This document shows, piece by piece, positions 655 to 16,521 of a DNA stretch of 60,827 nucleotides. The stretch is from positions 1 through 60,827 of the forward strand of contig CAVKHY010000001.1 in the NCBI GenBank assembly GCA_963656345.1, in the 5' to 3' direction. Every line of letters starts with the position of its first letter. Position 1 is the first letter of the stretch. Position numbers and translations under genes: made by a program. The DNA comes from a bacterium. GTDB lineage: Bacteria; Bacillota; Clostridia; Christensenellales; Aristaeellaceae. The notes under the pieces are model-generated. The model was not told the DNA's origin. It made no database searches and was given only the letters and a program-made list of their open reading frames with translations.

Positions 655-735
655 GTTGCGTGTGTGTTAACTTTTCAGGCCTCCGTGGGGATAGCCTGAT
701 TGTCCCGTGACCTGCACCGAAAGGAGAAACGCCCC

Positions 736-1410: not shown

Positions 1411-1422
1411 GAGGTGTGGCGT

Positions 1423-2283
1423 ATGCGGAGGCTGAGCTGTGCGCTGTTGGCGCTGATGATCCTGTGGACATGGATCCCTGCGCTGGGGGAAGAAGAAGGT
1501 TTGCCCACCTATGACGGGCCTGCATGGACCTTCGAGGTGGCTTTGGCAGATATTGATGAAGACCTGCTTATGCTGGCCAACAGCGCTTCCCCTCTGGATG
1601 CGTCCTATGAGCCTTCCGATCTGCGCACCATCACCGCCCGGAAGGATGATGACGACGGCAATAACCTGAATGGTGGCCTGTATCTTGCTTCCGGCGGGGT
1701 GAAGATGCTGCGCAAGTCCGCCTTCAGTGCCGTGACCCAGTTGATGGCAGCCGCCGAAAGCGACGGTGTGACCCTTTTCCTCCGCACGGGCTACCGCTCC
1801 TATGCAGATCAGGCCAAGCTGTATGCCCGGGCGGAGCAGCGCGGCGATGTGTCCGATACTCAGAAGGCCGGGGAGTGCGATTATCAGACGGGTTTGGCGG
1901 TCACCCTGGTAGGTCGGGATACCCGTGGCACGGCGCTGACCACGGATTTTGCTTCCACCACGGAAGGTCAGTGGCTGCAGAAGAACGCCGCCCGCTACGG
2001 TTTCATCTTCCGCTATCCTCAGGGGAAGGAAGATGTGACAGGCTATGGTTGGGAGCCATGGCATCTGCGGTTTGTGGGCTTTGCCGTGGCGGAGTATATT
2101 CAGCAGAACAACCTGACCTTGGAAGAGTTTGTGGAAGAACTGAACGTTGCCTATGATGAGTTTGCGGCTAACGGCGGCGACGTGGAGCAGGCCATGAACT
2201 CCGTTCGTCTGCCCAAGGGTGCAGTGGAATTGGAGCTGGAAGGCCCTGACGGGGATAAGGAGATCACCATCTTCCACGATTAA
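1423..2283 (+). CDS. M15B/VanY-like protein with degenerate metal site, paralogue 2
   Basis: AGAGGTG RBS then ATG 1423; the track start at 1414 is a GTG. TGYRSY and EPWHLRFVG are retained. The SxHxxGxAxD motif instead reads ECDYQTGLAVTL, so His is Tyr and Asp is Thr. Confidence 0.8.
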   Translation: MRRLSCALLALMILWTWIPALGEEEGLPTYDGPAWTFEVALADIDEDLLMLANSASPLDASYEPSDLRTITARKDDDDGNNLNGGLYLASGGVKMLRKSAFSAVTQLMAAAESDGVTLFLRTGYRSYADQAKLYARAEQRGDVSDTQKAGECDYQTGLAVTLVGRDTRGTALTTDFASTTEGQWLQKNAARYGFIFRYPQGKEDVTGYGWEPWHLRFVGFAVAEYIQQNNLTLEEFVEELNVAYDEFAANGGDVEQAMNSVRLPKGAVELELEGPDGDKEITIFHD

Positions 2284-2314
2284 ACTGAAGCTGCCCATGA
2301 AACAAGGAGTGAAC

Positions 2315-3175
2315 ATGGATAAGAAACGTTTGCTGAGCCTGATGTGCGCCGGTGTGCTGCTTCTTCCTGCTATTGGCCTTGGGGAAGAGGAGGATGAAGA
2401 GGTTTCCTTTGCGGATGTATCCGGGCTGGACTTGGAAATTGAAGTCACCTATGATGATGTGGAATGGAATTTCCCCGTGGATCTGCAGGATATGGAGCCG
2501 GACAAGATTGTGCTTGCCAATAAAGAAATGCTACTGAGTAAGGACTTTGTTTCCGAGCCCCTGGTTTCCATTCCTGCCCGGAAGGCGGACAAGGATGACA
2601 ACAACACCAACAACGGCGTGCTGAAGGCTTCTTCCGGCAAGATGCAGCTGCAAAAAGACTGCGCTGCTGCACTGGTGGCCATGTGCGAAGCCGCCCGGGA
2701 TGAGGGACTATATCTTTATCTGAAGAGCGCTTATCGTTCTTACCAGACGCAAAATACCATGTATTATAATCGGCTGAAGAAAAACAATGGTAAGGATGAT
2801 GGCTGGGTTTCCAAGCCCGGCGCCAGTGACCATCAAACCGGATTGGGATGCGACGTGGTGCCGAAAAGCTGGCGGGATAAATCCATGAATTCCAACATGG
2901 CTTCCACCGAGGAGTGCCAGTGGATGGCTGCACACTGTGCGGAATACGGCTTCATTATCCGCTATCCGGAGGATAAGGAAGATATTACGGAAATCAACTA
3001 CGAGCCATGGCACCTGCGGTATGTGGGGGTGCCGGCAGCAACCTACATCATGGAAAACGGTCTGTGCCTGGAGGAATTCCATGATCAGCTGCAGGCGGCC
3101 ATTGATGAATTCCTTGCGGCCGGGGGCAATCGCTCTCTGGTGGAAAAGTTCATTCAGGTCTCGGCGGAAAATTAA
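2315..3175 (+). CDS. Peptidase M15B, VanY-like D-alanyl-D-alanine carboxypeptidase (secreted), paralogue 3
   Basis: AAGGAG RBS then ATG 2315. Signal peptide is MDKKRLLSLMCAGVLLLPAIG. Motifs SAYRSY, GASDHQTGLGCDV and EPWHLRYVG are intact. It shares its N- and C-terminal architecture with paralogue 2. Confidence 0.85.
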   Translation: MDKKRLLSLMCAGVLLLPAIGLGEEEDEEVSFADVSGLDLEIEVTYDDVEWNFPVDLQDMEPDKIVLANKEMLLSKDFVSEPLVSIPARKADKDDNNTNNGVLKASSGKMQLQKDCAAALVAMCEAARDEGLYLYLKSAYRSYQTQNTMYYNRLKKNNGKDDGWVSKPGASDHQTGLGCDVVPKSWRDKSMNSNMASTEECQWMAAHCAEYGFIIRYPEDKEDITEINYEPWHLRYVGVPAATYIMENGLCLEEFHDQLQAAIDEFLAAGGNRSLVEKFIQVSAEN

Positions 3176-3332: not shown

Positions 3333-3393
3333 AAAGTCATCCCCTTGTATCTCTTACGGTGGTAAGGGACGGAAAGAAGACTGAGGTGCGATC

Positions 3394-6300
3394 ATGATGA
3401 AGTATGGGTGGAAGCGGTTTGCCGCAGCGGCTGTGGCTCTTGTAATGCTGACGAGCCTTTTGCCCCTGGTGACGGGTCATTCCTCCGCCAAGGCGGTGGG
3501 AACCTATGGCAAAACCATTGCCAACGGTGTCCGTGTGCGCAAGCAGCCCAGCACCACAGCGGACTATTGGTTCCGGATTGATATGGGTTATGTGTGCGAG
3601 CTGATGGATACCGTCACATCGGAAGGCCTTACCTGGTACAAGGTCACGGTGGAGCATCCGGATGACGGCAATACCCGGACGTACGTGGGCTATATCCACG
3701 GGGATTATTTCACCCCCATGACCGAGGCGGAAGCCATTGCGTGGGAAGCCAATCCCGTGCAGCCTGGTAAAACCACGGCTTCTTCTACCGCCGGTTCCAC
3801 GACAACGAATACAACAACGACAAATACCACAGCCGCTACCGGCGCAACCGGTACCATTACCAACGGCGGTGTGAATTTCCGACAAACGGAAGGCGGCTCT
3901 GTGCTGGCCAAGCTGGATCGGGGAACCATTGTGGAGCTGCTCAGCATTCCTTCCACCATTGATGCCAATCACTGGTATCGTGTCCGCTATAACAATCAGG
4001 AAGGCTACATTCAGGCGCCTTTCATTCGGGTGAACGGCAGCACGGTAACAGCCGTGCCTTCCACAGTGACCGCTGTGCCCAGCGTGGTCACAGCAACTCC
4101 TGTCCCTTCCAGCTATGTGAAGCTGATTCTTTCCAGCGCTAACCTGCGTACCGCCCCCGGCGGCAAGGTGGCTGCTCAGTGGGAAAACACCGGAGAGATT
4201 CTGGCCGTAACCGGCAGCAGTGTAACCACCGGCGGCTATACCTGGTATCCTGTTACGTACAACGGTGGTGCTTACTATGTCCGTGGGGACTGCGTGCAGG
4301 TGGTGTCCTCTGCGGATGGTTCCGTGACGCCTACCCCGGTGCCCACGGTTGTGCCGACCGCTGTAGTTACCGCAACTCCTCAGACGAATGCGACCTATGT
4401 GAAGCTGATTCTTTCCAGTGCCAACCTGCGTACCGCCCCCGGCGGCAAGGTGGCCGCTCAGTGGGAAACCACCGGGGAAATCCTGCTGGTGACCGGCACA
4501 GCCGTAACGACGGAAGGCTATACCTGGTATCCCATTACCTATCAGGGCGGTACCTATTATGTCCGTGGGGACTGCGTGCAGGTAGTGTCCTCTGCGGACG
4601 GTTCTGTGACGCCTACCCCGGTTGTTACCGCACAAATTACCACTGTAGGCTATGTGAAGACCATCAAGAGCAACGTGAACCTGCGGCTTCAGCCATCGGG
4701 TGAATATATTCAGCAGGTGCCCAGCAATCAGGTGCTGACCCTGCTGGCCAATCCCGTCACATCCGGCGGATACACCTGGTATTACGTACTGGTGGGCAAT
4801 GTGAAGGGCTATCTCCGTGGGGACTGCGTGCAGGAATGCGATGCCTACGGCAATGCAACCGCCGTGGTGACGGCAACGCCGAGCGTGACGGTCACGCCTA
4901 CCGTGTCCAACTACGGCTATATCAAGCTGATTTCTGACAAGGTGAATCTGCGGAATAAGCCGGCAGGCTCCTCTCTGGAACAGCTGGGCATCGACCTGGT
5001 GCTGCCTGTGATCGGCGCAACGGTCACCAGCGGTAATTACGTGTGGTATCCGGTAAGAACCACCAGCGGAACTACCGGCTATGTGCGGGGTGACTGCGCT
5101 GTGCTTACCGACAATAACGGCACGGACGTAACGCCTACGCCTACCGCCACGGGAAACAGCAGTACCACCGGATATGGTTACGCCATGGTCACCAAGTCCA
5201 GCACCAATGTGCGGAAAACCCCGGGCGGTGCGTCTACCGGCACGGTCAATAAGAATACGGTGTGGCCCATGACAGGCACGACGACTACCTCCGGCGGCTA
5301 TACCTGGTATCCTGTGAACGTAAACGGCACAACCGGCTACATTCGCGGCGACTGCGCCTTTAAGCTCAGTGCCGAACAGGAAGCCAGCTACATTGCCGGC
5401 AATGGCGTGTCCACGGTAACGCCTACGCCGACTCCGGCGTCCAGTACTTACGTGATTACCACTCTGGATAAGGTAAACCTCCGTGCCTCCGCCTCCAAGG
5501 ATGCAGCAGCTCCCTACAACATCAGCATCAATACGGTGATGGCGTATAATTCCACCGCTACCGTAGGCGGCAGCCTGTGGTATCGTGTGGTGTACAGCAA
5601 CACGGAAGTGTGGGTGCTGGGCAGCTGCGTGAAGGTGATGACGGAGGCAGAATATCAGGCCTATATTGCCAGCCAGCCTGCGACGACTCCCCAGGCAGAG
5701 GTGATTAAAGGCTACGTGCGTACCACCTCCAATGGTGTTAACCTGCGCACCACAGCCAATGGTGCGAATATCATCGGCCGCATTGACAAGGGCGTGGTCA
5801 TGAGCTATTCTCAGGATCCTGTAACGGTGCGGAACTATACCTGGTATTACGTGAAGACCTCCCTGGGCTACGGATATCTTCGCGGCGATTGTCTGGTAGT
5901 TTGCAACCAGGATGGCAGCGATGTGGCAACGCCTACCCCCACGGTCACCAGTAATGAGGGCAAGCAGGAAGCAACCTATACCACCCTGAAGAAGGGTTCC
6001 AGTGGTACAGCTGTGAAGGCGTTGGTAACAGAGCTGAAGACTCAGGGCTACTACACCGGCAGCATTACCAGCAGCTACACCAGTGCCGTGGAGGCCGCTG
6101 TGCGTGCCTTCCAGACGGCTAAGGGATTGACGGTGGACGGCATTGCCGGCAAGAATACCCAGCATGCTCTGTTCAATACGGTGGAGCCCGGCACTTCCGA
6201 TACCTCCAATCTGACCATGGCTATTTATCCGGCTGAGAAGATTGACTGGTACACCGGCGGTATCCAGCAGCTGTGGCCGAAGGGATCCAATTTCAAGGTT

Positions 6301-6681
6301 TATGACGTGAAGACCGGCATCGTCTGGTGGGCACACCGCTGGTCCGGCGGCAACCACGTGGACGCAGAGCCCCTGACGGCTGCAGACACGGCACGGCTGT
6401 GCAAGATCTATGGCGTCAGCAACGCAGACCAGATTGCTTCCAAGAACCTGTGGCAGCGTCGACCTTGCTTGGTGACCATCGGTACCCGCACCTTTGCCTG
6501 CTCGCTGTATGGCATTCCTCACAACTACCCGGATGGCGACACCATTTCCAACAACAACTTCAAGGGTCAGTTGTGCATCCACTTTACCAACAGTAAGACT
6601 CACGCGTCTAACAAGGTAGACACCTACCATACCGAGGCCATCCAGTATGCCTACGAGCATGCACCTAACGGACACAAGTAA
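3394..6681 (+). CDS. Secreted cell-wall-associated protein: 9 bacterial SH3-like repeats, a PG_binding_1-like domain and a C-terminal Cys/His domain of unknown function (1095 aa)
   Basis: Signal peptide is MMKYGWKRFAAAAVALVMLTSLLPLVTGHSSAKA. Nine units of about 65 aa follow the pattern GYVK..VNLR..P.G......G..L.V......GYTWY.V...G..GY.RGDCV, joined by T/P/V-rich linkers. The PG-binding-like segment is LKKGSSGTAVKALVTELKTQGYYTG...AVRAFQTAKGLTVDGIAGKNTQHALF. The last ~150 aa are unassigned. Confidence 0.85.
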   Translation: MMKYGWKRFAAAAVALVMLTSLLPLVTGHSSAKAVGTYGKTIANGVRVRKQPSTTADYWFRIDMGYVCELMDTVTSEGLTWYKVTVEHPDDGNTRTYVGYIHGDYFTPMTEAEAIAWEANPVQPGKTTASSTAGSTTTNTTTTNTTAATGATGTITNGGVNFRQTEGGSVLAKLDRGTIVELLSIPSTIDANHWYRVRYNNQEGYIQAPFIRVNGSTVTAVPSTVTAVPSVVTATPVPSSYVKLILSSANLRTAPGGKVAAQWENTGEILAVTGSSVTTGGYTWYPVTYNGGAYYVRGDCVQVVSSADGSVTPTPVPTVVPTAVVTATPQTNATYVKLILSSANLRTAPGGKVAAQWETTGEILLVTGTAVTTEGYTWYPITYQGGTYYVRGDCVQVVSSADGSVTPTPVVTAQITTVGYVKTIKSNVNLRLQPSGEYIQQVPSNQVLTLLANPVTSGGYTWYYVLVGNVKGYLRGDCVQECDAYGNATAVVTATPSVTVTPTVSNYGYIKLISDKVNLRNKPAGSSLEQLGIDLVLPVIGATVTSGNYVWYPVRTTSGTTGYVRGDCAVLTDNNGTDVTPTPTATGNSSTTGYGYAMVTKSSTNVRKTPGGASTGTVNKNTVWPMTGTTTTSGGYTWYPVNVNGTTGYIRGDCAFKLSAEQEASYIAGNGVSTVTPTPTPASSTYVITTLDKVNLRASASKDAAAPYNISINTVMAYNSTATVGGSLWYRVVYSNTEVWVLGSCVKVMTEAEYQAYIASQPATTPQAEVIKGYVRTTSNGVNLRTTANGANIIGRIDKGVVMSYSQDPVTVRNYTWYYVKTSLGYGYLRGDCLVVCNQDGSDVATPTPTVTSNEGKQEATYTTLKKGSSGTAVKALVTELKTQGYYTGSITSSYTSAVEAAVRAFQTAKGLTVDGIAGKNTQHALFNTVEPGTSDTSNLTMAIYPAEKIDWYTGGIQQLWPKGSNFKVYDVKTGIVWWAHRWSGGNHVDAEPLTAADTARLCKIYGVSNADQIASKNLWQRRPCLVTIGTRTFACSLYGIPHNYPDGDTISNNNFKGQLCIHFTNSKTHASNKVDTYHTEAIQYAYEHAPNGHK
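4114..4620 (+). repeat. Intragenic tandem duplication (period 282 nt) of one SH3 unit plus linker
   Basis: 4114-4338 and 4396-4620 are near-identical at nucleotide level. They encode YVKLILSSANLRTAPGGKVAAQWE(N/T)TGEIL...VRGDCVQVVSSADGSVTPTPV. Confidence 0.85.
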
Positions 6682-6689
6682 AAAACAGA

Positions 6690-6728
6690 GAGCTGCGGAA
6701 GAGGAAAACTTCCGCAGCTCCGTCTTTT
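6690..6728. terminator. Bidirectional intrinsic terminator between the convergent SH3-protein gene and anmK operon
   Basis: 12-bp stem GAGCTGCGGAAG / CTTCCGCAGCTC. It is flanked by an A-run upstream and CGTCTTTT downstream. Confidence 0.7.
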
Positions 6729-6824
6729 CATCAAGGAAAGTGCAAACATTCATCAACGCAGCAAGTGAAGCGCAAAAAATACCAGCCGCGAGCGGTTTAT
6801 CATCGCATGCGACTGGCGATTTTT

Positions 6825-8012
6825 TCATAGACTGATTTTTCCCATCACCACACCCTTGGTTGCTCCGGTTACGGATGGCATGTTGTTGCATCCGGCGAAG
6901 ACGGCTTCATTGGCTAGCACGGCAAAGGCCACAGCCTCTTTCGCATTGCTATCGTACCCCAGCTGTTCATTGGTCATGACCTGGCAGGCAGGTAAGGCAG
7001 CCCCAATGTCCTTCAGCAGGGTGGCGTTCATGCTGCCACCGCCGCCGATGATCAGCTCATCCGGCTTCACAGGGAAGAAGTGCTCCACACTGTAGGCAAT
7101 GGTAGCGGCGGTAAAGGCGGTGACGGTTGCCATCAGATCCTCGTCCGTCAAGCAGCGAGCCTTGGCTTCCGTCATGATGCGTTTCACGTAGGCCGGGCCA
7201 TAGTATTCGCGGCCGGTGGTTTTTGGAGGCTGGCGGCGAATGTACTCGTCATCCATCATCAGGTTCAGCAGGGATTGATTGATCTGCCCCTTGGCGGCAA
7301 AAGCGCCTCCTTCGTCAAACCGCTTTTCTCCATGGGTGATTGCGCCGTACACTGCATCCATCACCATGTTGCCGGGGCCGGTGTCGAAGGCAAAAACCTC
7401 CTCCGGCTTGCAGGCAGGGGGCAGGCAGGTAATGTTGCCGATGCCGCCGATGTTTTGCAGAGCAATACACTTGGTCTCGCTGCGGTAGATAAGGTATTCG
7501 CTGTAGGGCACCAACGGTGCGCCTAAGCCTCCGGCGGCTACATCCCGTACCCGGAAATCGCCCACCACAGGGCAACCGAAGGCTTCCGTCAATACGGAGC
7601 ATTCCCCTAATTGCAGGGTGCTGCGGAAGGTTTGCCCCAGGTAGGATTCCGGCTGCGGAATGTGCCACAAGGTCTGCCCATGGCTGCCAATCAGGTCGAT
7701 GTCCTTCGGCGATACACTACATTCACGGCACAGCCGCAAAGAAGTTTCCGCATACAGCCGCCCCAGCAGGAAATTGATTCGGCAGAAATCTGCTGCCGTG
7801 GCTTCCTTCCCTCCAGCCAGGCGAAGAATTTCTTCCCGCACGCAGGTGTCAAAGGAATCAAAAACAAAGCCCAGCTGTTCCACCTTGGTGGCTGTGCCAT
7901 GGCCGGTAATGCGGCACAATGCCGCATCCACCCCGTCTGCCGAAGTGCCGGACATGAGCCCGATCACGAGCCGGACGGGCTTTTCCATCAGTGCTACCAG
8001 CGGATGTTGCAT
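6825..8012 (-). CDS. anmK: Anhydro-N-acetylmuramic acid kinase
   Basis: N-terminal VIGLMSGTSADGVDAAL signature and a length of 395 aa. A GAGGTGA RBS overlaps the upstream stop codon. Confidence 0.9.
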   Translation of the reverse strand: MQHPLVALMEKPVRLVIGLMSGTSADGVDAALCRITGHGTATKVEQLGFVFDSFDTCVREEILRLAGGKEATAADFCRINFLLGRLYAETSLRLCRECSVSPKDIDLIGSHGQTLWHIPQPESYLGQTFRSTLQLGECSVLTEAFGCPVVGDFRVRDVAAGGLGAPLVPYSEYLIYRSETKCIALQNIGGIGNITCLPPACKPEEVFAFDTGPGNMVMDAVYGAITHGEKRFDEGGAFAAKGQINQSLLNLMMDDEYIRRQPPKTTGREYYGPAYVKRIMTEAKARCLTDEDLMATVTAFTAATIAYSVEHFFPVKPDELIIGGGGSMNATLLKDIGAALPACQVMTNEQLGYDSNAKEAVAFAVLANEAVFAGCNNMPSVTGATKGVVMGKISL

Positions 8013-8021
8013 ATCATCACC

Positions 8022-8909
8022 TCACAGCATTGCTTGCGCCATCATCACCGCACCGGTGCAGGCGTCATGTTTCGGGTCAATACAGTGTACAGCAGGGCAG
8101 CGGTACCCCATGGCGCTGATGAAGGCAGAGCGGAGCAGTGTTCTGTTTTCCAGCATGCCGCCCAGCATGGCCAGCGGTGCCTCTTCCATGTGCAGGCGGT
8201 GGTATACGGCTTCCGCCTGTTGAGCCAGTTGCTCGCCGTTTGTCTGAATGATGGTGCGAGCAACGCCATCCCCTGAGGCGGCAGCCTGTTCCACCAGCCG
8301 GGAGAAGGCCGCCACACGGCTCTTGTCTCCGGCGTAAACATAGGAAATGATTTTGCTCCGATCGTCCAGACCATAGGCTTCTGCCAGCAGTTGGGTCAGC
8401 AGGGTGGGATCGCCGTATCCGTCCCAAGCATGCGCAACGGCGGCCAAAGCGTCACGCCCCAGGGCGTAACCGCTGCCTTCATCCCCGATGAGATGTCCCC
8501 AGCCACCGGCACGGATTTCTTCCCCTGTGGGGCTGATGCCGAAACAAATGGAACCTGTGCCGGCGATGAGGGCAATACCCGGTTCACCGTCCAAAGCCCC
8601 GTGGAGGGCAATCACATGGTCGCCCACCAGCTTGCGCTGCAGGATGCCGGCCTGATCCAATGCCTTCTCGATCATGGCAGACATGGTTTCATTGCTGATG
8701 CCCGCCGTGCCGATGCATAGAGCGGCGCAGGTTCCGATGCTTTGCAGATACGTGGTGATTTCTGTCAGCAAGGCAGCAAACCGTTCCGCCCCGATGCTGT
8801 TCAGGTTGAAGGCACCGAAGGTTTTTTCGGAAATGGTCTGTCCCTGCAAATCACGGCAGCAGACACGGGTTTTGGTGCCGCCGCCGTCAATTCCGGCTGC
8901 AAATTTCAT
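8022..8909 (-). CDS. BadF/BadG/BcrA/BcrD-type ATPase, N-acetylglucosamine/MurNAc kinase-like
   Basis: N-terminus MKFAAGIDGGGTKTRV is the ASKHA phosphate-1 motif. GTGSICFG and GDEGSGY are also present. ATGA overlap with the upstream gene. Confidence 0.75.
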   Translation of the reverse strand: MKFAAGIDGGGTKTRVCCRDLQGQTISEKTFGAFNLNSIGAERFAALLTEITTYLQSIGTCAALCIGTAGISNETMSAMIEKALDQAGILQRKLVGDHVIALHGALDGEPGIALIAGTGSICFGISPTGEEIRAGGWGHLIGDEGSGYALGRDALAAVAHAWDGYGDPTLLTQLLAEAYGLDDRSKIISYVYAGDKSRVAAFSRLVEQAAASGDGVARTIIQTNGEQLAQQAEAVYHRLHMEEAPLAMLGGMLENRTLLRSAFISAMGYRCPAVHCIDPKHDACTGAVMMAQAML

Positions 8910-9310
8910 GGCGTTTCTTTCTTTTCCTCAATTTTGCTTATGACATACGGTGACACATGGTAGACCTGCATGTACTTTCGCTCTTTCTGGTACTGCCGCA
9001 GGAGCTGCTTCATTTCGCTGATTTCGCCCTGCTGGATAAACAGAAAACCGAAAGCACACAGTCCAAGGGAGATGCTCAGGGATGTAAGATAGCCAAATTC
9101 TTTCACGAATTGAACTTGTGTGCCGAAAATCAAAACGCAAAGCACACCGAAGAAGCCGAGAATGAAGGCTGCCCAGCCGATCACGCTGAAGCCGGAAAAA
9201 GGTTCGGTGTTAACCTCTCGCGCCAGCTGGTCACGGTCTAATTGCCATAGGCGATTTTCGTATTCCAGCGCTGTTTCATTCTTCCTTCTTCTTCTTTCCA
9301 TGGCATACAT
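8906..9310 (-). CDS. Small membrane protein, unknown function (134 aa, 2 predicted TM)
   Basis: GGAGGTG RBS. Hydrophobic segments are FSVIGWAAFILGFFGVLCVLIF and LTSLSISLGLCAFGFLFI. The gene sits inside the operon. Confidence 0.6.
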   Translation of the reverse strand: MYAMERRRRKNETALEYENRLWQLDRDQLAREVNTEPFSGFSVIGWAAFILGFFGVLCVLIFGTQVQFVKEFGYLTSLSISLGLCAFGFLFIQQGEISEMKQLLRQYQKERKYMQVYHVSPYVISKIEEKKETP

Positions 9311-9332
9311 GCTGCATCACCTCCGCAGTTTT

Positions 9333-10076
9333 CTACTTTGTGTCCAACAGAAAGTCAATTCCTTGCTGCAGTGCCGTGTCCCAGAAAGCCCAGCCGTGGT
9401 CGCCTTCCCAATGCCGGAAGGTGACGTTCATGCCCTTCTCCTGCATGCATTTGACCAGACGGCTGTTTGGTTCCAGGAAAGGATCTTGTTCGCCGCAGGC
9501 CATGAATACTTTCGGTACTTGCGCAGGGTCTGCTTTTTCTGCGAGGGCAAAGAGGTTGTCTTCCTCCGGAATCTTTCCATCCACGCCGAACCAGCCGGTG
9601 ACCTCGTTGGGAAATTTCTCTCCCAGCAAAAAAGCTTCATGTCCCAGAGAAACGGAAGGGGAAAGGGCGGCCACACCGGCATAGCGTTCCGGCGTGCGGA
9701 GGACGCACTTCAGTGCCCCATAGCCGCCCATGGAAATACCCATCAGATAGTTGTTTTCCGGCTTGGGGGATAGACCGAAGAAGCCTTGGCAGATCTTCGG
9801 CAGTTCGTCATGAATGAAGGTAAAATACCGAAGCCCGTAGGCCATGTCCATGTAGAAGCTCCGCTGCACTTCGGGAATCACCAGCACCGCATTGTGCTTC
9901 CGCACGTACCGCTCCACGCTGGTGTACCGGGAAATACCGGTGCAGTTGTCCTGCAGGCCATGAAAGGCATAGAAGATAGGCCTTTCGCCCAGGGGGATTC
10001 CTTCCGGCAGCACCACGGTCATGGAGGTGTTCATGTCCAGCACTTCCGAGCGAAAATCACAACGAATATGTGCCAT
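9333..10076 (-). CDS. Esterase-D/tributyrin-esterase-family serine hydrolase
   Basis: GISMGGYG nucleophile elbow and a C-terminal GDHGWAFW His motif. ATG 10076 overlaps the murQ stop as TAATG; the track ORF extends to 10199. Confidence 0.75.
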   Translation of the reverse strand: MAHIRCDFRSEVLDMNTSMTVVLPEGIPLGERPIFYAFHGLQDNCTGISRYTSVERYVRKHNAVLVIPEVQRSFYMDMAYGLRYFTFIHDELPKICQGFFGLSPKPENNYLMGISMGGYGALKCVLRTPERYAGVAALSPSVSLGHEAFLLGEKFPNEVTGWFGVDGKIPEEDNLFALAEKADPAQVPKVFMACGEQDPFLEPNSRLVKCMQEKGMNVTFRHWEGDHGWAFWDTALQQGIDFLLDTK

Positions 10077-10975
10077 TATTTTCGCTCCCCGATGGCACCG
10101 GCTACACGGCCGTCGTTCTTTTCCAGCAAGGCTTCTGCTTCCTGGGCGGTGACGCCTGCTTTCAGCATCACAATGGCTGTCTTGGCTCGGTAGTCGCACT
10201 GCTCCAGCGTCCTGGCGGCAACATCACGGTCAACCCCAGTGGCTGTGCACACAATACCTTTGCAGCGTTCTATCAGCTTCTGATTGGTGGGCTTTACGTC
10301 CACCATCAGGTTGCCGTACACCTTGCCCAGCTTGATCATGGCGCCGGTGGACAGCATGTTCAGCACCATTTTCTGTGCCGTACCGCTCTTCAGCCGGGTA
10401 GAGCCGGTGATAACCTCCGGTCCCGGCACGGGGGTGATGGGGATTTCAGCTAACTGTTCCACCTGAGAACCGGGATTACAGCAGAGCCCTACCACGTGGG
10501 CACCCAGGGAGGCGGCGTATTTCATGGCGCCGATGACGTAAGGGGTGCGGCCGGAGGCAGCAATGCCTACCAGCACATCCTTCTTGGAAAAATCAATGCC
10601 CTTTAAGTCTTCCGCACCCTGCTGCTCGTCGTCTTCTGCGCCTTCCTTGGCACGGAAGATAGCGTCATGCCCGCCGGCAATGAGTCCCACCACCATGCTT
10701 TCATCTGTGGAGAAGGTGGGGGGACATTCCACTGCATCAAGGATACCCAAACGACCGGAAGTGCCGCAGCCGATGTATACCAGCCGTCCGCCCTGCTTCA
10801 ACTGCTGAGCAATGACGTCCACCGCCTGTGCAATGTGGACGGCTTCCTTGCCCACAGCTTCTGCTACCTTGGCGTCTTCCTCATTGATAAGGCGAATCAT
10901 GTCCACCGTGGGCAGACGGTCGATCTGCATGGTGCGGCTGTTTCGCTGCTCTGTTTTGATGGCTTGAAGATCCAT
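10076..10975 (-). CDS. murQ: N-acetylmuramic acid 6-phosphate etherase
   Basis: SIS-domain protein of 299 aa. Typical MurQ N-terminus ([27 protein letters not shown]) and GCGTSGRLG. Confidence 0.9.
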
Positions 10976-10996
10976 AGCATCCTCCGTTGATGACGT

Positions 10997-11950
10997 TTAT
11001 TTTTCAAACAGCTTGCAGGATACCAAGTGCCCGGGCGCAATCTCGTGCAGCTGGCAGGGCTCTTTGCATTTGTCGCAGGCATGGGGGCAGCGGGGGGCAA
11101 ACCGGCAGCCCGGTGCAGGATTGATGGGGCTGCTGACCTCACCCTTCAGGGTGAAATGCTCCTGATTCCGCTTGCTCAGGTCGATGGTGGGCACAGATGC
11201 CAGCAACGCCTTGGTGTAGGGGTGCGCTGGATGGGCAAACAGCTCAGCAGTGGGGGCGTATTCAATGGTCTGCCCCATATACATCACCATGATTTCGTTG
11301 CTGATGTGCTTCACCACGCAAAGGTCGTGGGTGATAAACATGTAGGAAAGCCCACGCTGCTCCTGCAGATCCATCAATAGGTTCAAAATCTGTGCCTGAA
11401 TGGATACATCCAGGGCGGATACAGGCTCATCGCATACGATGAACTTAGGGCTGACTGCCATGGCACGGGCAAGACCCACGCGCTGACGAAGACCACCATC
11501 CAATTCGTGGGGGTACAGGTTGGAATGGTTGGCAGGCAGGCCGCACATTTCCATGATTTCATGTACGTGCTCCTTGATTTCCGCCTTGTTCTTCATCAGT
11601 CCGCAGACGGCTACAGGCTCTGCAATCAAGTCATGGACGGACATGCGGGGATCCAGAGAGCTGTAAGGATCCTGAAAAACCATCTGCATGTTCAGGTGAA
11701 TCTTTCGCATATCTTTACCCCGGTACTTGCGGATGTTCTCCCCATTGTACAGAATTTCACCGTCGGTGGCTTCGTGCAGGCGCAGGATGGTACGCCCCAG
11801 GGTAGACTTGCCGCAGCCGCTTTCACCCACAACGCCCAGGGTTTTTCCGGGCAGGATCTTCAGGTTCACGTCTTCCACTGCGTGGAGGAGCCCACGGGAT
11901 GTTTTGAAATATTTTTTCAGGTTTCTGGTTTCAACAAGCGGTGCAGTCAT
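10997..11950 (-). CDS. ABC transporter ATP-binding protein, OppF/DppF type
   Basis: Walker A GESGCGKST, LSGGLRQRV-like signature, and a C-terminal oligopeptide-type extension with Cys motif. The start at 11950 lies 1 nt after the upstream stop; the track ORF extends to 12067. Confidence 0.85.
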   Translation of the reverse strand: MTAPLVETRNLKKYFKTSRGLLHAVEDVNLKILPGKTLGVVGESGCGKSTLGRTILRLHEATDGEILYNGENIRKYRGKDMRKIHLNMQMVFQDPYSSLDPRMSVHDLIAEPVAVCGLMKNKAEIKEHVHEIMEMCGLPANHSNLYPHELDGGLRQRVGLARAMAVSPKFIVCDEPVSALDVSIQAQILNLLMDLQEQRGLSYMFITHDLCVVKHISNEIMVMYMGQTIEYAPTAELFAHPAHPYTKALLASVPTIDLSKRNQEHFTLKGEVSSPINPAPGCRFAPRCPHACDKCKEPCQLHEIAPGHLVSCKLFEK

Positions 11951-11951
11951 T

Positions 11952-12941
11952 TCAGAACACCTCCTTGTTTTCGTAGCGGTGGCACATAATGCCGTGCTCG
12001 CCGCATACGTGCATCTTGGGACGCTCCTTGCGGCAACGGTCGCAGGCGTACTCGCACCGGTCAGCAAAGCAGCAGCCTTCCTGCAAGACGCGCGGGTTGG
12101 CCATGCGTCCGGGAATGGGATGCAGCCGGGGCTGCTGGTCGTTCAGGTCAGGAATGCAGTTGAACAAACCTGCCGTATAGGGGTGGTTTTCTTCACGGCG
12201 GAATACGGTTTCCACCGGGCCGAACTCCACCACACGGCCGGCATACACCACGGATACGGAGTCGCAGAATTGTGCCACCACGCCCAGGTCATGGGTAATG
12301 AGCAGCACGGATGTGCTGAATTTCTCCTTTAGCTGCTTCATCAGCTCCAGAATCTGCGCCTGAATGGTCACGTCCAGGGCAGTAGTGGGCTCATCGGCCA
12401 GCAGCAGTTCCGGCTCTGCCACCAGTGCCATGGCGATCACAATGCGCTGTTTCATGCCGCCGGAAAATTCGTGAGGGTAGCTGTCCTTTCTTTCCGGGGG
12501 GATGCCCACCAGGGTCATCATTTCATCCACACGCTTGTCCTTTTCTGCACGGGACATTTCCGGAAAATGAAGATCCAGCACCTCATGAATCTGTGCGCCT
12601 ACCGTGTGGGTGGGGTTCAGGCTGGTCATGGGATCCTGAAAGATCATGGAGATTTTCTTGCCGCGGAGGGGAAGCATTTCTGCTTCCGGCAGGGTGAGCA
12701 GATCTTCACCGTTGTAGTTGATGCTTCCTTTGACAATCTCGCCTACCTTGGGCGGCAACAGCCGCAGGATGGACAGCGCCAGGGTGGTTTTTCCGGCACC
12801 TGTTTCGCCGACCAGCCCGCGAGCTTCTCCACGGATTAGCTTCAGCTTGAAGTCGTTGACCGAGTGCACCACGGCATCGTCCGTGTTATACTGCACGGTC
12901 AAGTCTGATATTTGCAGCAAATAATCCTTTTCTTTTTCCAT
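11952..12941 (-). CDS. ABC transporter ATP-binding protein, OppD/DppD type
   Basis: Walker A GETGAGKTT, FSGGMKQR signature, Walker B LLLADEPTTALD, and a C-terminal Cys-rich extension. Confidence 0.85.
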   Translation of the reverse strand: MEKEKDYLLQISDLTVQYNTDDAVVHSVNDFKLKLIRGEARGLVGETGAGKTTLALSILRLLPPKVGEIVKGSINYNGEDLLTLPEAEMLPLRGKKISMIFQDPMTSLNPTHTVGAQIHEVLDLHFPEMSRAEKDKRVDEMMTLVGIPPERKDSYPHEFSGGMKQRIVIAMALVAEPELLLADEPTTALDVTIQAQILELMKQLKEKFSTSVLLITHDLGVVAQFCDSVSVVYAGRVVEFGPVETVFRREENHPYTAGLFNCIPDLNDQQPRLHPIPGRMANPRVLQEGCCFADRCEYACDRCRKERPKMHVCGEHGIMCHRYENKEVF

Positions 12942-12952
12942 TACGATGCACC

Positions 12953-13828
12953 TCAGTTCTTGGTTCTGGGGTCAAAGGCATCCCGAAGACCATCGCCGAT
13001 AAAGTTCACAGCCATAACGGTCAGGCAGATGCAGACGCCGGGGATAATGCCCAGGTACGGATAGGCCTGAATGTTGATCTTGTTTTCGGAAATAATGGTG
13101 CCCCATTCCGGAGTGGGGGAAGCGACGCCCAAGCCCAGGTAGCCCATGGAGGAAATGCTCAGAATGGTCTGCCCCAGGCACAGGGTGGCGGAAACGATGA
13201 TGGGGCCGATGCCGTTGGGAAGAATGTGCTTGAGGATGATCCGCAGGGAGCTGCAGCCGTAGCACTTGGCCGCTTCAATGTATTCCACGTTCCGCAGCGT
13301 CAGCACGGAGGAGCGGACAATACGGGCAAAGCGAGCCACCTGAGAAATAGCCAGTGCGACAACCAGCTTCCAAATGCCGTTGCCCAAGGCGGTAATAATG
13401 GCCATGGCCAGCAGTGCCGAAGGAACAGCCATCAGCATATCCACAATGCGCATGAGGATGGTATCCACCTTGCCGCCGAAGTAGCCTGCCGCCCCGCCGA
13501 TCAGCGCACCGATGACGAAGGCGATGCCGATAATGGCAAAGCTGCACAGCAGGGAAATGCGTCCGCCGTAAAGGATGCGGGCAAACAAATCCCGGCCGAA
13601 TTCATCCGTGCCGAAGATATACGTTGCATTCGGGGCAGAGAACTTGTCCCGGATATGCATCTTGGTCACGGCTTCATAGCTGGACAAAACAGGTGCCAGC
13701 AGCACCGCCAGGAAAACCAGTGCCAGCAGAAACACACCGAACATGGCCAGCTTGTTTTTGCGGAAACGGAACATAACCAGCTGACCTGTGCTGTATTCAG
13801 ATAGAGGTTTTTTATGTTTTCTTGCCAT
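12953..13828 (-). CDS. ABC transporter permease, OppC/DppC type
   Basis: Multi-TM protein with an EAA-loop region (IEAAKCYGCSSLRIILKHILPN). Confidence 0.85.
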   Translation of the reverse strand: MARKHKKPLSEYSTGQLVMFRFRKNKLAMFGVFLLALVFLAVLLAPVLSSYEAVTKMHIRDKFSAPNATYIFGTDEFGRDLFARILYGGRISLLCSFAIIGIAFVIGALIGGAAGYFGGKVDTILMRIVDMLMAVPSALLAMAIITALGNGIWKLVVALAISQVARFARIVRSSVLTLRNVEYIEAAKCYGCSSLRIILKHILPNGIGPIIVSATLCLGQTILSISSMGYLGLGVASPTPEWGTIISENKINIQAYPYLGIIPGVCICLTVMAVNFIGDGLRDAFDPRTKN

Positions 13829-13849
13829 TGCAATCCCTTCCTTCTTCCA

Positions 13850-14779
13850 TCAGGATGCCAGGTTAATGCGAGGATCAATCTTTGCACACAGAAGATCCAC
13901 CAGCAGATTGATAACGCCTACAATGATCGTTACAAAGATAACTGTACCCAGCACCACCGGTACGTCACGGGACTTGACGGCGTTCAGCAGTAGGGTGCCG
14001 ATACCGGGGATGGCGAAGATGTTTTCCGTTACCACAGCGCCGCCGATGGTGCCGGCAAAGCTGACGCCGATCTGGGTCACCACGGGGATCAAACCGTTCC
14101 GCATGGCATGGTGACGAATGACGACACGTTCGCTTGCGCCCTTGGCACGGGCAGTGCGGATGTAGTCCTGACGGATGACGTCCAGCATGCTGGTGCGGCT
14201 CATGCGGATCATGGTAGCCATGGTATTGGCACCCAGGATAATGGTGGGCAGCACCCAGTGGGCAGGCGTGCCTAAGCCGGAGGTGGGAAGCCACCGCAGA
14301 GAAACGCAGAACAGCACCTGACACATGGTTCCTAACCAGAAGGCCGGCAGGGAGAACAGCAGCATGGCCACAAAGGAGCTGCCGTAGTCTAATAAGCTGT
14401 ATTGTTTAATGGCGGAGCCAATGCCCAGGGGAACGCCTACGGCAATGGCGAAGGTCATCGCCAGGGTTGACAAAAGCAGGGTATTAGGCAGCCGTGCCGC
14501 AAACCGATCCAGCACTTCTTCATTGTTCGTCCAGGAAGTGCCGAAGTCCAGGTGACACACGCCTGCCATGTAGTTGACGTAACGGGTCAGCAGGGGCTGA
14601 TCCAGCCCCATTTCAGCCTTCTTGGCGGCAATCTGCTCTTCTGTAGCGTCATCGCCTAAAAGGTTGCGGGCAATATCGCCGGGAGCAGCGGACAAAATAA
14701 GAAACAGAACAAAGGTTACACAGATGATGACGGGTATCAGCATCAACAGCCGTTTCCCGGCATATTTTAACCAGGTCAT
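13850..14779 (-). CDS. ABC transporter permease, OppB/DppB type
   Basis: GAAGGAGGAG RBS then ATG 14779 (MTWLKYAGKRLLMLIP). The EAA-loop is YIRTARAKGASERVVIRHHAMRN. Confidence 0.85.
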   Translation of the reverse strand: MTWLKYAGKRLLMLIPVIICVTFVLFLILSAAPGDIARNLLGDDATEEQIAAKKAEMGLDQPLLTRYVNYMAGVCHLDFGTSWTNNEEVLDRFAARLPNTLLLSTLAMTFAIAVGVPLGIGSAIKQYSLLDYGSSFVAMLLFSLPAFWLGTMCQVLFCVSLRWLPTSGLGTPAHWVLPTIILGANTMATMIRMSRTSMLDVIRQDYIRTARAKGASERVVIRHHAMRNGLIPVVTQIGVSFAGTIGGAVVTENIFAIPGIGTLLLNAVKSRDVPVVLGTVIFVTIIVGVINLLVDLLCAKIDPRINLAS

Positions 14780-14840
14780 CTGATCTCCTCCTTCAGGGGA
14801 AGTTACCGGGGACGATAGGTCTTGATTTCCATTCAACATT

Positions 14841-14880
14841 CGAAAAAGGAAGCGGAGCGGCAAGGACCGTTCCGCTTCCT
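14841..14880 (-). terminator. Intra-operon hairpin (attenuator or mRNA stabiliser) between the SBP and permease genes
   Basis: Perfect 10-bp stem AGGAAGCGGA / TCCGCTTCCT followed by TTTTCG on the minus strand. It lies in the 141-nt gap after the SBP gene. Confidence 0.6.
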
Positions 14881-14920
14881 CCTATGGTCAAAGCAGGGAA
14901 GCTGCCTTGACGATTCATTG

Positions 14921-16438
14921 TTAGTTGGCAAAGCTCATGTCATAGAAGTAGTAGTAGCCCAGGCAGTGCGCCTTCACACCGGTGAGGCTGCTGTTGTAGG
15001 CCACGGTAACCAGGCTGTTCACCAGCGGCACATCGTAAGCTTCTTCGGTGATGATGTTGCAGGCCTGCACATACAGCTTGGTACGGTCAGCACCCTGAGC
15101 GGCACGGCCGGCAAGCAGCAGCTCGGAGATTTCTCCGTCGCGGGCGAAGACACGGTCTTCCCATGCGGCACGATCCAGCCGGTGCTCGGTGTACATGCCG
15201 TCAGCATCCACCAGAGAGCACAGGTTGTCGATGATGTAGCCGCCGGTGTAGTTCCGCTTCTGGAAGCCTTCGGAATAGGTGGGGCCGTCTACAGCGTTCA
15301 CGGTGCAGTTAATGCCCACGTCCATCAGCTGAGCCTGAATCACCTTGGCGGCGGTTTCCAGCACGCTGCCGCTGGACACGGTCACGGAGAATTCTTCGCC
15401 GTTGTAGTTGGCAGCCTTCAGGTATTCCTTAGCAGCCTCGGGATCATAGGCAACGGTTTCAACGCCGTCTGCCACGGTGACATAGCCGCCGTAGTTGGGG
15501 CACATATCCACGTCCAGGGTAACGGAATTGCCGGAATATACAGCATCGTTGATTTCGTCCTTGTTAATGGCAGCCTGTACGGCCTTACGGAAGTTCACGT
15601 CCTTGCACACGCCGGTCCAGTCGTTCAGGTACAGGGATACACGGCCGGTGGACAGGGTGCTGTTCCAGGCAACGCCGGGGGTACCGTCCAGCCGGGTGCA
15701 AACGTCGATGGCAGGATCACGGACCACGTCATAGTCGCCGCTCTGCAGGCCCAGGATCTGGGTGTTGGTGTCAGCAACCACCTTGATGATGACGGTCTTG
15801 ATGGAAGGAGTGCCACGCCAGTAGTCTTCATTCGCTACCAAGGTGGTGTGGTCGCCGCTTACATACTCGGAGAACTTGTAGGGGCCGGTGCCAATGGGAG
15901 CAGCCAGGTAGCCTTCGTCGCCCACTTCGTCAAAGTAGGACTTGCAGGCAACGCCGCCCAACCGGGAAGCAACGCCATAGGGGAAGGCTGCATAGGGGCT
16001 GGTCAGGGTCACGGCGACGGTGTAATCGTCAATAATGTCGCACTTTTCAAAGTTAACAAACAGTGCAGCGCCGATGGGGCCCTGATAGCCGTAGTCGAAG
16101 GTGAACTTTACGTCCTCTGCGGTCAGTTCCTTGCCGTTGTGGAACTTAACGCCCTGACGGATGTGGAAGGTGTATACCAAGCCGTCATCGGACACTTCAT
16201 AGCTTTCCGCCAAGCCGGGGGTCAGGGTGCCGTCTGCTTCCAGGCGGAGCAGGCTGTCGTACACGTTGGCCAGCACCAGGTTGTCGTTGCCGCTGCAGCT
16301 CTTCTCGGACTGGGCAAAGAAGCGCACCGGTTCACCGGAAGTGGCCAGCACCAGTGTATCCTTTGTCTCTGCAAAAGATACGGACAGGCAGGTCAGGCAC
16401 ATGGCAAGTGCCAAAACGAGGGACAGGAATTTCTTCAT
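14921..16438 (-). CDS. ABC transporter substrate-binding protein, family 5 (peptide/nickel/oligosaccharide type)
   Basis: AAGGAGG RBS then ATG 16438. Signal/lipoprotein-like N-terminus is MKKFLSLVLALAMCLTCLSVSFA. About 505 aa with a typical SBP_bac_5 layout. Confidence 0.85.
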   Translation of the reverse strand: MKKFLSLVLALAMCLTCLSVSFAETKDTLVLATSGEPVRFFAQSEKSCSGNDNLVLANVYDSLLRLEADGTLTPGLAESYEVSDDGLVYTFHIRQGVKFHNGKELTAEDVKFTFDYGYQGPIGAALFVNFEKCDIIDDYTVAVTLTSPYAAFPYGVASRLGGVACKSYFDEVGDEGYLAAPIGTGPYKFSEYVSGDHTTLVANEDYWRGTPSIKTVIIKVVADTNTQILGLQSGDYDVVRDPAIDVCTRLDGTPGVAWNSTLSTGRVSLYLNDWTGVCKDVNFRKAVQAAINKDEINDAVYSGNSVTLDVDMCPNYGGYVTVADGVETVAYDPEAAKEYLKAANYNGEEFSVTVSSGSVLETAAKVIQAQLMDVGINCTVNAVDGPTYSEGFQKRNYTGGYIIDNLCSLVDADGMYTEHRLDRAAWEDRVFARDGEISELLLAGRAAQGADRTKLYVQACNIITEEAYDVPLVNSLVTVAYNSSLTGVKAHCLGYYYFYDMSFAN

Positions 16439-16492: not shown

Positions 16493-16521
16493 AGCATACC
16501 CTTTTGACAGGCGCTTGTCAA
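16493..16521 (-). promoter_or_regulatory. Candidate promoter of the ABC-murQ-anmK operon with an overlapping palindrome
   Basis: The minus strand reads TTGACA-agcgcc-TGTCAA-aaggg-TATGCT. That gives a -35 box, a 17-nt spacer and a -10 box. The inverted repeat TTGACA N6 TGTCAA spans 16504-16521. Confidence 0.45.

Follow-up and report, generated by a model that had tools for sequence, protein, structure and literature searches.

Neither the import of peptidoglycan fragments by ATP-binding cassette (ABC) transporters, as a mechanism, nor the joining of an Opp-type ABC transporter to murQ in Clostridia, as a genomic fact, is new. Here, we analyze a ten-gene operon on the minus strand, between positions 6825 and 16438, of contig CAVKHY010000001.1 (GenBank assembly GCA_963656345.1), from a gut bacterium of the clostridial family Aristaeellaceae; the whole stretch of DNA analyzed, 60,827 nucleotides (60.8 kb) in length, is called the window throughout. 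The operon joins a family-5 substrate-binding protein (SBP) and an OppBCDF-type translocator to the N-acetylmuramic acid 6-phosphate (MurNAc-6-P) etherase MurQ, an esterase, a MurK-like kinase, and the anhydro-MurNAc kinase AnmK, and it probably serves the scavenging and catabolism of peptidoglycan amino sugars. What is new is an orthologous clade of SBPs, DppA-sized and lacking the peptide-anchoring Asp, that comes with a constant murQ–esterase pair; a minimal enzyme set of esterase, kinase, and MurQ, with or without AnmK, and devoid of glycosidase or amidase genes; and the breadth of this SBP clade in gut Clostridia and Sphaerochaeta.

Several described systems resemble the operon in part. 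YejBEF-YepA of Agrobacterium tumefaciens is a PepT-family ABC importer that has been proven genetically and chemically to import muropeptides (Gilmore & Cava 2022, PMC9790009). Like the window, it combines a PepT-family ABC transporter with a dedicated family-5 SBP and brings peptidoglycan turnover products to the cytoplasm, replacing AmpG. Unlike the cargo proposed here, what it carries is anhydro-muropeptides, on which AmpD and NagZ then act (PMC9790009); moreover, yepA lies apart from the translocator genes as well as from murQ/anmK, and the translocator is common to the peptide SBP YejA, whereas the window holds everything in one operon. According to the same paper, YepA occurs exclusively in Alphaproteobacteria (PMC9790009), and orthology with the window SBP is therefore unlikely. 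In E. coli, Opp-MppA similarly consists of an Opp-type translocator and a peptidoglycan-dedicated family-5 SBP, but MppA binds free tripeptide and keeps an Asp (D439) where the window SBP, 18% identical to MppA, has Ser. MurP, a phosphotransferase system (PTS) permease of the enzyme IIBC (EIIBC) type, and the MurT–MurK–MurQ route of Tannerella forsythia are like the window in that MurNAc is delivered to MurQ, and the MurT route also in that a separate kinase is needed (PMC5790795); Tannerella MurK and the clostridial MurK type are no more than distant relatives (PMC5790795). Unlike both, the window has no EIIC homologue, so that uptake would be ATP-driven and SBP-dependent. Finally, SatABCD of Haemophilus ducreyi (SBP structure 5za4) and AccA/AgaA share with the window SBP the DppA-sized family-5 fold, with template-modelling (TM) scores of ~0.8, and bind small acidic sugars or sugar derivatives, not peptides; they differ from it in their ~20-26% identity, their ligands, and their operon partners.

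A murQ-opp operon of Clostridium acetobutylicum is said to have been discussed by Reith and Mayer in 2011. This locus (L092:522-13019) encodes murQ, an SBP_bac_5 protein (569 aa), oppB, oppC, oppD, oppF, a 52-aa membrane open reading frame (ORF), an AmiE-like protein, a GH3 protein, murK, a GNAT protein, and NamZ, with nagB, nagA, a GntR gene, MurR, and an L-Ala-D/L-Glu epimerase-like gene near the MurK locus. Its MurK (CA_C0183) was characterized by Reith et al. 2011, as cited in PMC5790795, and CA_C0176 is annotated as an oligopeptide-binding protein (PMC3044671). Like the window, the cluster has co-directional murQ, family-5 SBP, OppBCDF, and BadF kinase genes, and its SBP also lacks a DppA-type Asp anchor. 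In contrast, it has the AmiE-like amidase, the GH3 NagZ, GNAT, and NamZ, and neither a PF00756 esterase nor AnmK. The enzymes of the locus carry no signal peptides, and a cytoplasmic AmiE-like/GH3/GNAT/NamZ set implies a muropeptide or oligosaccharide cargo there. The two SBPs are not orthologous, with 28% identity over the N-terminal 440 residues and lengths of 569 versus 505 aa, which argues that this transporter family was recruited independently in the two cases, with different enzymes around it. In the literature, we found no characterization of the C. acetobutylicum murQ-linked ABC transporter and no direct description of murQ paired with Opp-type ABC genes in Firmicutes. Still, the original prediction, made from the window's letters and ORFs, went too far in calling the transporter undescribed, given the proven YejBEF-YepA importer (PMC9790009) and a C. 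acetobutylicum MurK locus that already joins murQ to opp genes. Both are nearer to the operon than the routes which that prediction named, i.e., MurP, AmpG, MurT, and Opp-MppA.

An ORF check of the window recovered all ten minus-strand ORFs, from 16438 down to 6825, where they had first been placed; upon re-derivation, the permB start moved to 14779 and the oppF start to 11950, while the remaining starts were unchanged. Families were assigned from Pfam and NCBIfam profile scores. In the order of transcription, with the signals at both ends, the features are:

16493-16521, minus strand: sigma-70-like promoter, TTGACA-17-TATGCT, 10/12 matches, ~55 nt 5' of the SBP start codon.
14921-16438, minus strand: family-5 (cluster C) SBP, 505 aa, with an N-terminal signal peptide, the importer's determinant of specificity (PF00496, 264 bits).
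14780-14920, minus strand: SBP-permB intercistronic region with a terminator-like hairpin (from folding).
13850-14779, minus strand: OppB/DppB-type permease (permB), 309 aa (PF00528, BPD_transp_1, and PF19300, BPD_transp_1_N, OppB-N).
12953-13828, minus strand: OppC/DppC-type permease, 291 aa (PF00528, BPD_transp_1, and PF12911, OppC_N).
11952-12941, minus strand: OppD-type ATPase, 329 aa (PF00005, ABC_tran, and PF08352, oligo_HPY).
10997-11950, minus strand: OppF-type ATPase, 317 aa (PF00005, ABC_tran, and PF08352, oligo_HPY).
10076-10975, minus strand: MurQ, MurNAc-6-phosphate etherase, 299 aa (TIGR00274, 404 bits, cutoff 302).
9333-10076, minus strand: cytoplasmic serine esterase of the esterase D/tributyrin-esterase type, 247 aa (PF00756, 80 bits, cutoff 22).
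8906-9310, minus strand: 134-aa ORF with two predicted transmembrane helices (no family).
8022-8909, minus strand: MurK-like BadF-type MurNAc/N-acetylglucosamine (GlcNAc) 6-kinase, 295 aa (PF01869, BcrAD_BadFG, 112 bits).
6825-8012, minus strand: AnmK, anhydro-MurNAc kinase, 395 aa (PF03702, 319 bits; NF007148, 457 bits, cutoff 387).
6689-6721, both strands: bidirectional intrinsic terminator, common to a convergent 1095-aa gene, 13-bp stem with 8 G-C pairs and T-runs on both strands.

The gaps between these genes, in transcription order, are 141, 21, 11, 1, 21, -1 (TAATG), 22, -4 (ATGA), and 9 nt, and GGAGG-like ribosome-binding sites precede nine of the ten. With an SBP, both permeases, and both oligo_HPY ATPases recognized by Pfam, the transporter belongs to the PepT importers (Opp/Dpp/Nik-type, TC 3.A.1.5). 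Apart from the two corrected starts, the ten-gene unit, its gene content, its architecture, and the attenuator-like hairpin after the SBP gene are all as originally claimed, by ORFs, Pfam/NCBIfam, and folding.

The transcription signals fit with a single transcription unit, in which the ten genes would be co-transcribed. The three closest relatives keep both promoter hexamers unchanged and differ in the spacer, and the terminator at 6689-6721 is the operon end. Within the 141-nt gap, the hairpin GGAAGCGGAACGG-UCCU-UGCCGCUCCGCUUCC, followed by UUUUU, forms a 13-bp interrupted, G+C-rich stem, and the gap as a whole folds at -50.2 kcal/mol (z = -3.2). In 22 of 44 related loci, this position also holds a hairpin with a T-run, but with other stem sequences, which argues that the structure is under selection; it is probably a partial terminator or a messenger RNA stabilizer that gives an excess of SBP. 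An Rfam scan of the whole window found no riboswitch or leader, and a candidate operator palindrome at the -35 box, TTGACAAGCGCCTGTCAA, was dropped, as the three closest relatives do not conserve it.

Homologues of the SBP number in the thousands. We scanned one genome per species, which gave 80 loci with 10-kb flanks, determined the gene content of relatives by tblastn with the ten window proteins, annotated some contigs with Pfam, and built an SBP tree. One clade of this tree holds the window together with Oscillospiraceae, Lachnospiraceae, and Spirochaetales/Sphaerochaeta, at 50-99% identity to the window SBP (71-99% for permB). In this clade, murQ directly follows the ABC genes in all 32 loci that have enough downstream DNA, and 31 of the 32 also carry the esterase and the kinase. 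Bacterium 1xD42-87 (L015) is a cultured carrier of the operon. Clostridia have the genes in the order murQ-esterase-kinase, Spirochaetes in the order esterase-murQ-kinase, and a linkage kept despite differing gene order has survived rearrangement and inter-phylum transfer. The linkage of the ABC genes to murQ is not due to chance. Its conservation in related genomes had been named beforehand as a check that could refute the original prediction; with the two linked in 32/32 informative loci from two phyla, the claim that the importer functionally belongs with murQ, the kinase, and anmK stands. Gene identities, operon structure, and conserved linkage are the established part of this analysis. 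Four loci (L002, L019, L020, and L033) are titled Phocaeicola, Bacteroidaceae, or Paraprevotella and are nearly identical to Clostridia/Sphaerochaeta ones; they are probably mis-binned contigs, not Bacteroidota genes.

Other genes vary across the clade. AnmK is confined to the sub-clade of the window (nine loci) plus L087 and L090. A stand-alone EIIC permease, whose best NCBIfam match is MurP (model positions ~119-470, no IIB domain) and which resembles Tannerella MurT, is found in 22 related loci, and an RpiR/MurR-type regulator (HTH_6 and SIS) in ~20; in Lachnospiraceae operons, a MATE-type protein takes the place of the EIIC permease. A second hydrolase adjoins the divergent MurR gene in Lachnospiraceae and Spirochaete operons (e.g., L081:1035-1859; also L013, L015-L017, L028, L037, L039, L040, and L044) and resembles the arylesterase lp_1002, the pectin acetylesterase PaeX, and the acetylxylan esterase AxeA1. 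NagB lies near the operon in six Spirochaete loci. By tblastn, the 60.8-kb window contains no RpiR/MurR, EIIC (E <= 1e-3), NagZ, NamZ, AmiE-like amidase, or NagA/NagB, in agreement with the original statement that the operon encodes neither NagZ nor an amidase. Similarly, L001-L003 are like the window in having no EIIC permease, MurR, MATE-type protein, or second hydrolase by tblastn. With no other permease within 60.8 kb, the ABC importer is the sole transporter encoded with the pathway in the window lineage. The idea of an ABC importer instead of a PTS, with no MurR, thus holds for this lineage and fails for the family, where EIIC and MurR genes recur; MurR probably regulates the operon in the relatives, and for the window operon a regulator may be encoded elsewhere in the genome. 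If the ABC cargo is a monosaccharide, the MurP-like permease of the relatives would offer a second way in, with lower affinity or a different specificity.

Enzymes for larger peptidoglycan fragments are consistently missing. Searched by tblastn with clostridial proteins, neither the window nor any clade locus contains GH3/NagZ, NamZ, GNAT, or PIG-L genes; AmiE-like genes are absent from the window and from the clade loci, except for two in L018; and no stem-peptide peptidase (LdcA, MpaA, or epimerase) is present in the clade operons. A sister SBP clade, at ~55% identity, is mostly devoid of murQ (L025, L029, L031, L032, and L034-L036) and may import a different amino sugar or an acidic sugar. 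One of its loci, L085:5403-14141, lies near BNR_2 (sialidase-like), CutC, ROK, and GH2 genes; no conserved shared neighbours of the murQ-less sister clade emerged from greedy ORF calling, which antisense ORFs make unreliable in high-GC DNA.

Of the catabolic enzymes, MurQ passes the TIGR00274 equivalog cutoff, shares 52% identity with its homologue from the C. acetobutylicum locus, and is predicted from its sequence to have MurNAc-6-P etherase activity. AnmK, specific to a sugar found only in peptidoglycan, is matched by PF03702 over residues 15-393 and passes the NF007148 equivalog cutoff. The kinase aligns over its full length with the MurNAc/GlcNAc kinase of PDB entry 8zo3 (residues 1-293 to 1-303, E = 2e-47), whose sequence is identical to C. 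acetobutylicum MurK, and it is predicted to phosphorylate MurNAc at O6. The prediction is backed indirectly by a 619-aa fusion of MurQ to a BadF-type kinase directly after the ABC genes in Ruminococcus sp. 5_1_39BFAA (L030:15392-17251), a carrier of the sister SBP clade, a Rosetta-stone confirmation that both work together. MurK-type kinases accept GlcNAc too (PMC5790795).

The esterase, which the original prediction listed without recognizing its importance, is as conserved as the kinase, standing beside murQ in 31 clade loci. Across 16 homologues, its G-x-S115-x-G motif, D198, and H227 do not vary; they place it among the alpha/beta-hydrolases, and its sequence has no signal peptide. The nearest structures are short-chain carboxylesterases, i.e., 4rgy (E = 1e-49), Streptococcus pneumoniae EstA 2uz0 (E = 3e-35), and 6vh9/7l0a, and Pfam also gives weak Peptidase_S9 matches. 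A 50%-identical esterase follows murQ directly in a different operon, L091, which has a CUT1-type ABC transporter. Since the esterase stays with murQ under another transporter, it belongs to the MurNAc module whatever the importer. A 6-O-acetyl group on MurNAc sits on the very hydroxyl that is the target of MurK, and because of this block we infer that the enzyme de-O-acetylates imported MurNAc, i.e., that it is a MurNAc O-acetyl esterase. No direct description of a cytoplasmic O-acetyl-MurNAc de-O-acetylase or of a MurQ-linked esterase was found in the literature.

Two further loci are observations in their own right. L091:615-16802 encodes MurR, AnmK, a CUT1-type sugar SBP with two permeases, GNAT, a PIG-L deacetylase, MurQ, the esterase, NamZ, GH3, a BadF kinase, and NagA; it is a second kind of ABC-fed MurNAc operon and probably serves peptidoglycan oligosaccharides, including N-deacetylated ones. 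In E. coli K-12 (L089:934-1854), ycjY encodes a putative alpha/beta hydrolase between mpaA and pgrR/mppA, in the murein-peptide recycling neighbourhood, and is thus another uncharacterized hydrolase beside a peptidoglycan-dedicated family-5 SBP.

The binding protein itself lies below every NCBIfam equivalog cutoff. It matches NikA, GsiB, Opp4A, and DppA, with NikA the best, and its scores do not make it a nickel SBP (NikA TIGR02294, 151 bits versus 393; Opp5A NF045468, 140 bits versus 600). An AlphaFold2 model with a predicted local distance difference test (pLDDT) of 90.5 found its closest folds by Foldseek in GbpA, GsiB, DppA, AccA, AgaA, NikA, and SatA, all DppA/NikA-sized cluster-C proteins, whose ligands are glutathione (GbpA/GsiB), dipeptides (DppA), opines and sugar phosphates (AgaA/AccA), Ni-chelates (NikA), and sialic acid (SatA). 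Thus, NCBIfam, a PDB sequence search, and Foldseek return generic cluster-C neighbours only, at 20-28% identity, which suggest a small ligand but no particular specificity.

The SBP clade was also aligned with E. coli DppA and MppA, and again with L-INS-i. In DppA, D408 (D436 of the precursor) and, in MppA, D439 are the Asp that salt-bridges the peptide alpha-ammonium, and the DppA R355 loop holds the C-terminal carboxylate. In all eight clade members aligned, the anchor Asp is an invariant Ser (S408 in the window), and the R355 loop is deleted. With both anchors missing, ordinary peptides are unlikely as ligands, a conclusion held with moderate confidence at the 18-28% identity of these alignments. 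By sequence, the SBP is therefore not an ordinary peptide or nickel binder, in line with the original prediction. The murQ operons L092 and L091 themselves encode glycosidase/amidase-type enzymes for larger fragments; clade operons, in contrast, have no glycosidase or amidase genes apart from the AmiE-like ones of L018, so that their cargo most economically enters as a monosaccharide. The DppA/NikA size of the SBP and the binders of small acidic sugars or sugar derivatives among its fold neighbours (SatA, AccA, and AgaA) point the same way. On these grounds, we give slightly better than even chances to MurNAc, O-acetyl-MurNAc, or anhydro-MurNAc, imported as a monosaccharide, and the disaccharide or muropeptide cargo also entertained originally is disfavoured by the consistent absence of glycosidase and amidase genes.

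The pathway can be rationalized as follows. The surface-exposed family-5 SBP would capture a small MurNAc-type ligand outside the cell, most likely free MurNAc, 6-O-acetylated MurNAc, or 1,6-anhydro-MurNAc, and the OppBCDF-type translocator would import it, powered by ATP; the hairpin 3' of the SBP gene would keep the binding protein in excess. Once the ligand is in the cytoplasm, any O-acetyl group standing in the way at C6 would be stripped off by the esterase, MurNAc would be phosphorylated at O6 by the MurK-like kinase, and AnmK would open and phosphorylate anhydro-MurNAc. MurQ would then cleave the lactyl ether of MurNAc-6-P into GlcNAc-6-P and D-lactate, and NagA and NagB, encoded elsewhere, would pass the product to glycolysis or wall synthesis. 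Both the cargo and the substrate of the esterase are what we infer from sequence. In its most specific form, which we put forward tentatively, the SBP clade would be the first ABC importer dedicated to free MurNAc, 6-O-acetyl-MurNAc, and anhydro-MurNAc, accompanied by an unrecognized cytoplasmic MurNAc 6-O-acetyl esterase that always goes with murQ, in a module widespread in gut Oscillospiraceae and Lachnospiraceae and horizontally exchanged with Sphaerochaeta.

Several points weigh against import of a MurNAc-type monosaccharide followed by de-O-acetylation. Anhydro-MurNAc cannot be 6-O-acetylated, and the esterase and AnmK must therefore serve different substrates. The Asp-to-Ser argument is built on alignments of ~28% identity, and all members of the SBP and esterase clades are known from genes alone. 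The N-terminus of the SBP (16370-16438, minus strand; MKKFLSLVLALAMCLTCLSVSFA/ETKD) has no canonical lipobox (L-x-[AGS]-C); the window SBP is also without the Gly/Ser/Ala-rich linker of its relatives (…LCACG…). Peptides are the usual cargo of PepT-family importers, and both proven peptidoglycan cases, Opp-MppA and YejBEF-YepA, carry peptide-containing fragments. An unlinked NagZ or amidase outside the 60.8-kb window could process a larger cargo, and the MurP-like EIIC in most relatives' operons means that the ABC cargo may differ from plain MurNAc.

The last of these points also speak for the best-surviving alternative, namely that the importer carries larger fragments, such as GlcNAc-MurNAc, (anhydro)muropeptides, or MurNAc-peptides, which unlinked NagZ or amidases trim, unless the 'esterase' is itself a MurNAc-L-Ala amidase, as its weak Peptidase_S9 matches might suggest. 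PepT is typically a peptide family, and YejBEF-YepA sets the precedent for muropeptide import (PMC9790009); the C. acetobutylicum murQ-opp operon has its AmiE-like, GH3, and NamZ enzymes in the cytoplasm by their lack of signal peptides; an N-blocked muropeptide binder would likewise lose the Asp that anchors a free N-terminus; three VanY genes and a gene for an SH3/PG-binding protein adjoin the operon; and the co-occurrence of MurP-like EIIC in relatives suggests a different ABC cargo. However, a glycosidase gene is found in 0/32 informative clade operons and AmiE-like genes near just one, the window SBP is 28% identical to its C. acetobutylicum counterpart and smaller (505 versus 569 aa), and the nearest structures of the esterase are carboxylesterases, not amidases. 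We regard a larger cargo as unlikely, if well worth keeping in view.

Alternatively, the ABC transporter could be an ordinary oligopeptide, dipeptide, or nickel importer that is merely adjacent or co-regulated, e.g., bringing in stem peptides while the sugar enters by another permease. The top NCBIfam matches (NikA, GsiB, Opp4A, and DppA) are of this kind, a separate MurP-like EIIC could supply MurNAc in the relatives, and the sister SBP clade, at ~55% identity, mostly lives without murQ. Yet, these NCBIfam scores fall far under the cutoffs (for NikA, 151 versus 393 bits), the peptide-anchoring Asp and Arg loop are absent, and the linkage to murQ persists in 32/32 loci of two phyla despite the reshuffled order. 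In addition, clade operons hold no LdcA, MpaA, or epimerase with which to use stem peptides, and in the window the ABC importer is the operon's only transporter, all of which renders an ordinary importer very improbable. Least probable of all, to the point of being far-fetched, is a module for some acetylated or lactyl-ether sugar outside peptidoglycan, derived from the diet or from host glycans, with shifted MurQ and kinase specificity, for which two acetylesterase-like genes, an SBP that has opine and sugar-phosphate binders among its relatives, and the acceptance of GlcNAc by MurK-type kinases (PMC5790795) could be adduced, but against which stand MurQ and AnmK at equivalog level, the latter specific to a peptidoglycan-only sugar, and the co-located MurR-type regulators and MurP-like permeases.

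Around and within the operon, some genes fall outside the system proposed here. The 134-aa ORF, between the esterase and the kinase, has a good ribosome-binding site and the ATGA overlap, belongs to no Pfam or NCBIfam family, and is present in the window and L001 only; its ~400 bp are missing from L002 and L003, which are otherwise syntenic and 84-89% identical in DNA. Originally counted as an operon member, it is a lineage-specific insertion and was rejected as a component of the conserved system, since relatives at 97-98% identity do without it. Upstream of the terminator on the plus strand, three consecutive paralogues of VanY-type D-Ala-D-Ala carboxypeptidases (236, 289, and 318 aa; 700-3175), an unusual triplication of an enzyme that trims peptidoglycan, are followed by a 1095-aa protein (3394-6681, plus strand) with SH3_3 and PG_binding_1 domains and no recognized catalytic domain, whose gene converges on anmK. 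These VanY and SH3/PG-binding genes were rejected as parts of the system, as they lie on the opposite strand, beyond the terminator, and are syntenic only in close relatives. A stop-free antisense ORF at 3337-6891 (minus strand, 1184 aa), with a Gly/Arg/His-rich translation, looks spurious. The rest of the window is housekeeping, with SecA, a release factor (RF), TsaD, RNase PH, NAD synthase, and DnaB/DnaI-like genes, and has no nagA/nagB.

Peptidoglycan fragments are abundant in the gut, where they are both bacterial nutrients and host signals, as ligands of NOD1/NOD2. To our knowledge, their uptake by the dominant gut Clostridia is largely unknown, the characterized routes being mostly those of Proteobacteria, Bacillus, Staphylococcus, and Tannerella. 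The operon family described here offers a concrete uptake route for uncultured Oscillospiraceae and Lachnospiraceae, in which a single SBP clade and a single translocator are combined with a minimal set of enzymes. The murQ-linked esterase is a specific candidate for a missing step of MurNAc catabolism, de-O-acetylation before MurK, and, if this is true, it would render the sugar of O-acetylated, lysozyme-resistant peptidoglycan usable. If the proposed cargo is also true, the SBP would be a MurNAc-specific binding module and a marker gene for peptidoglycan scavenging in metagenomes.

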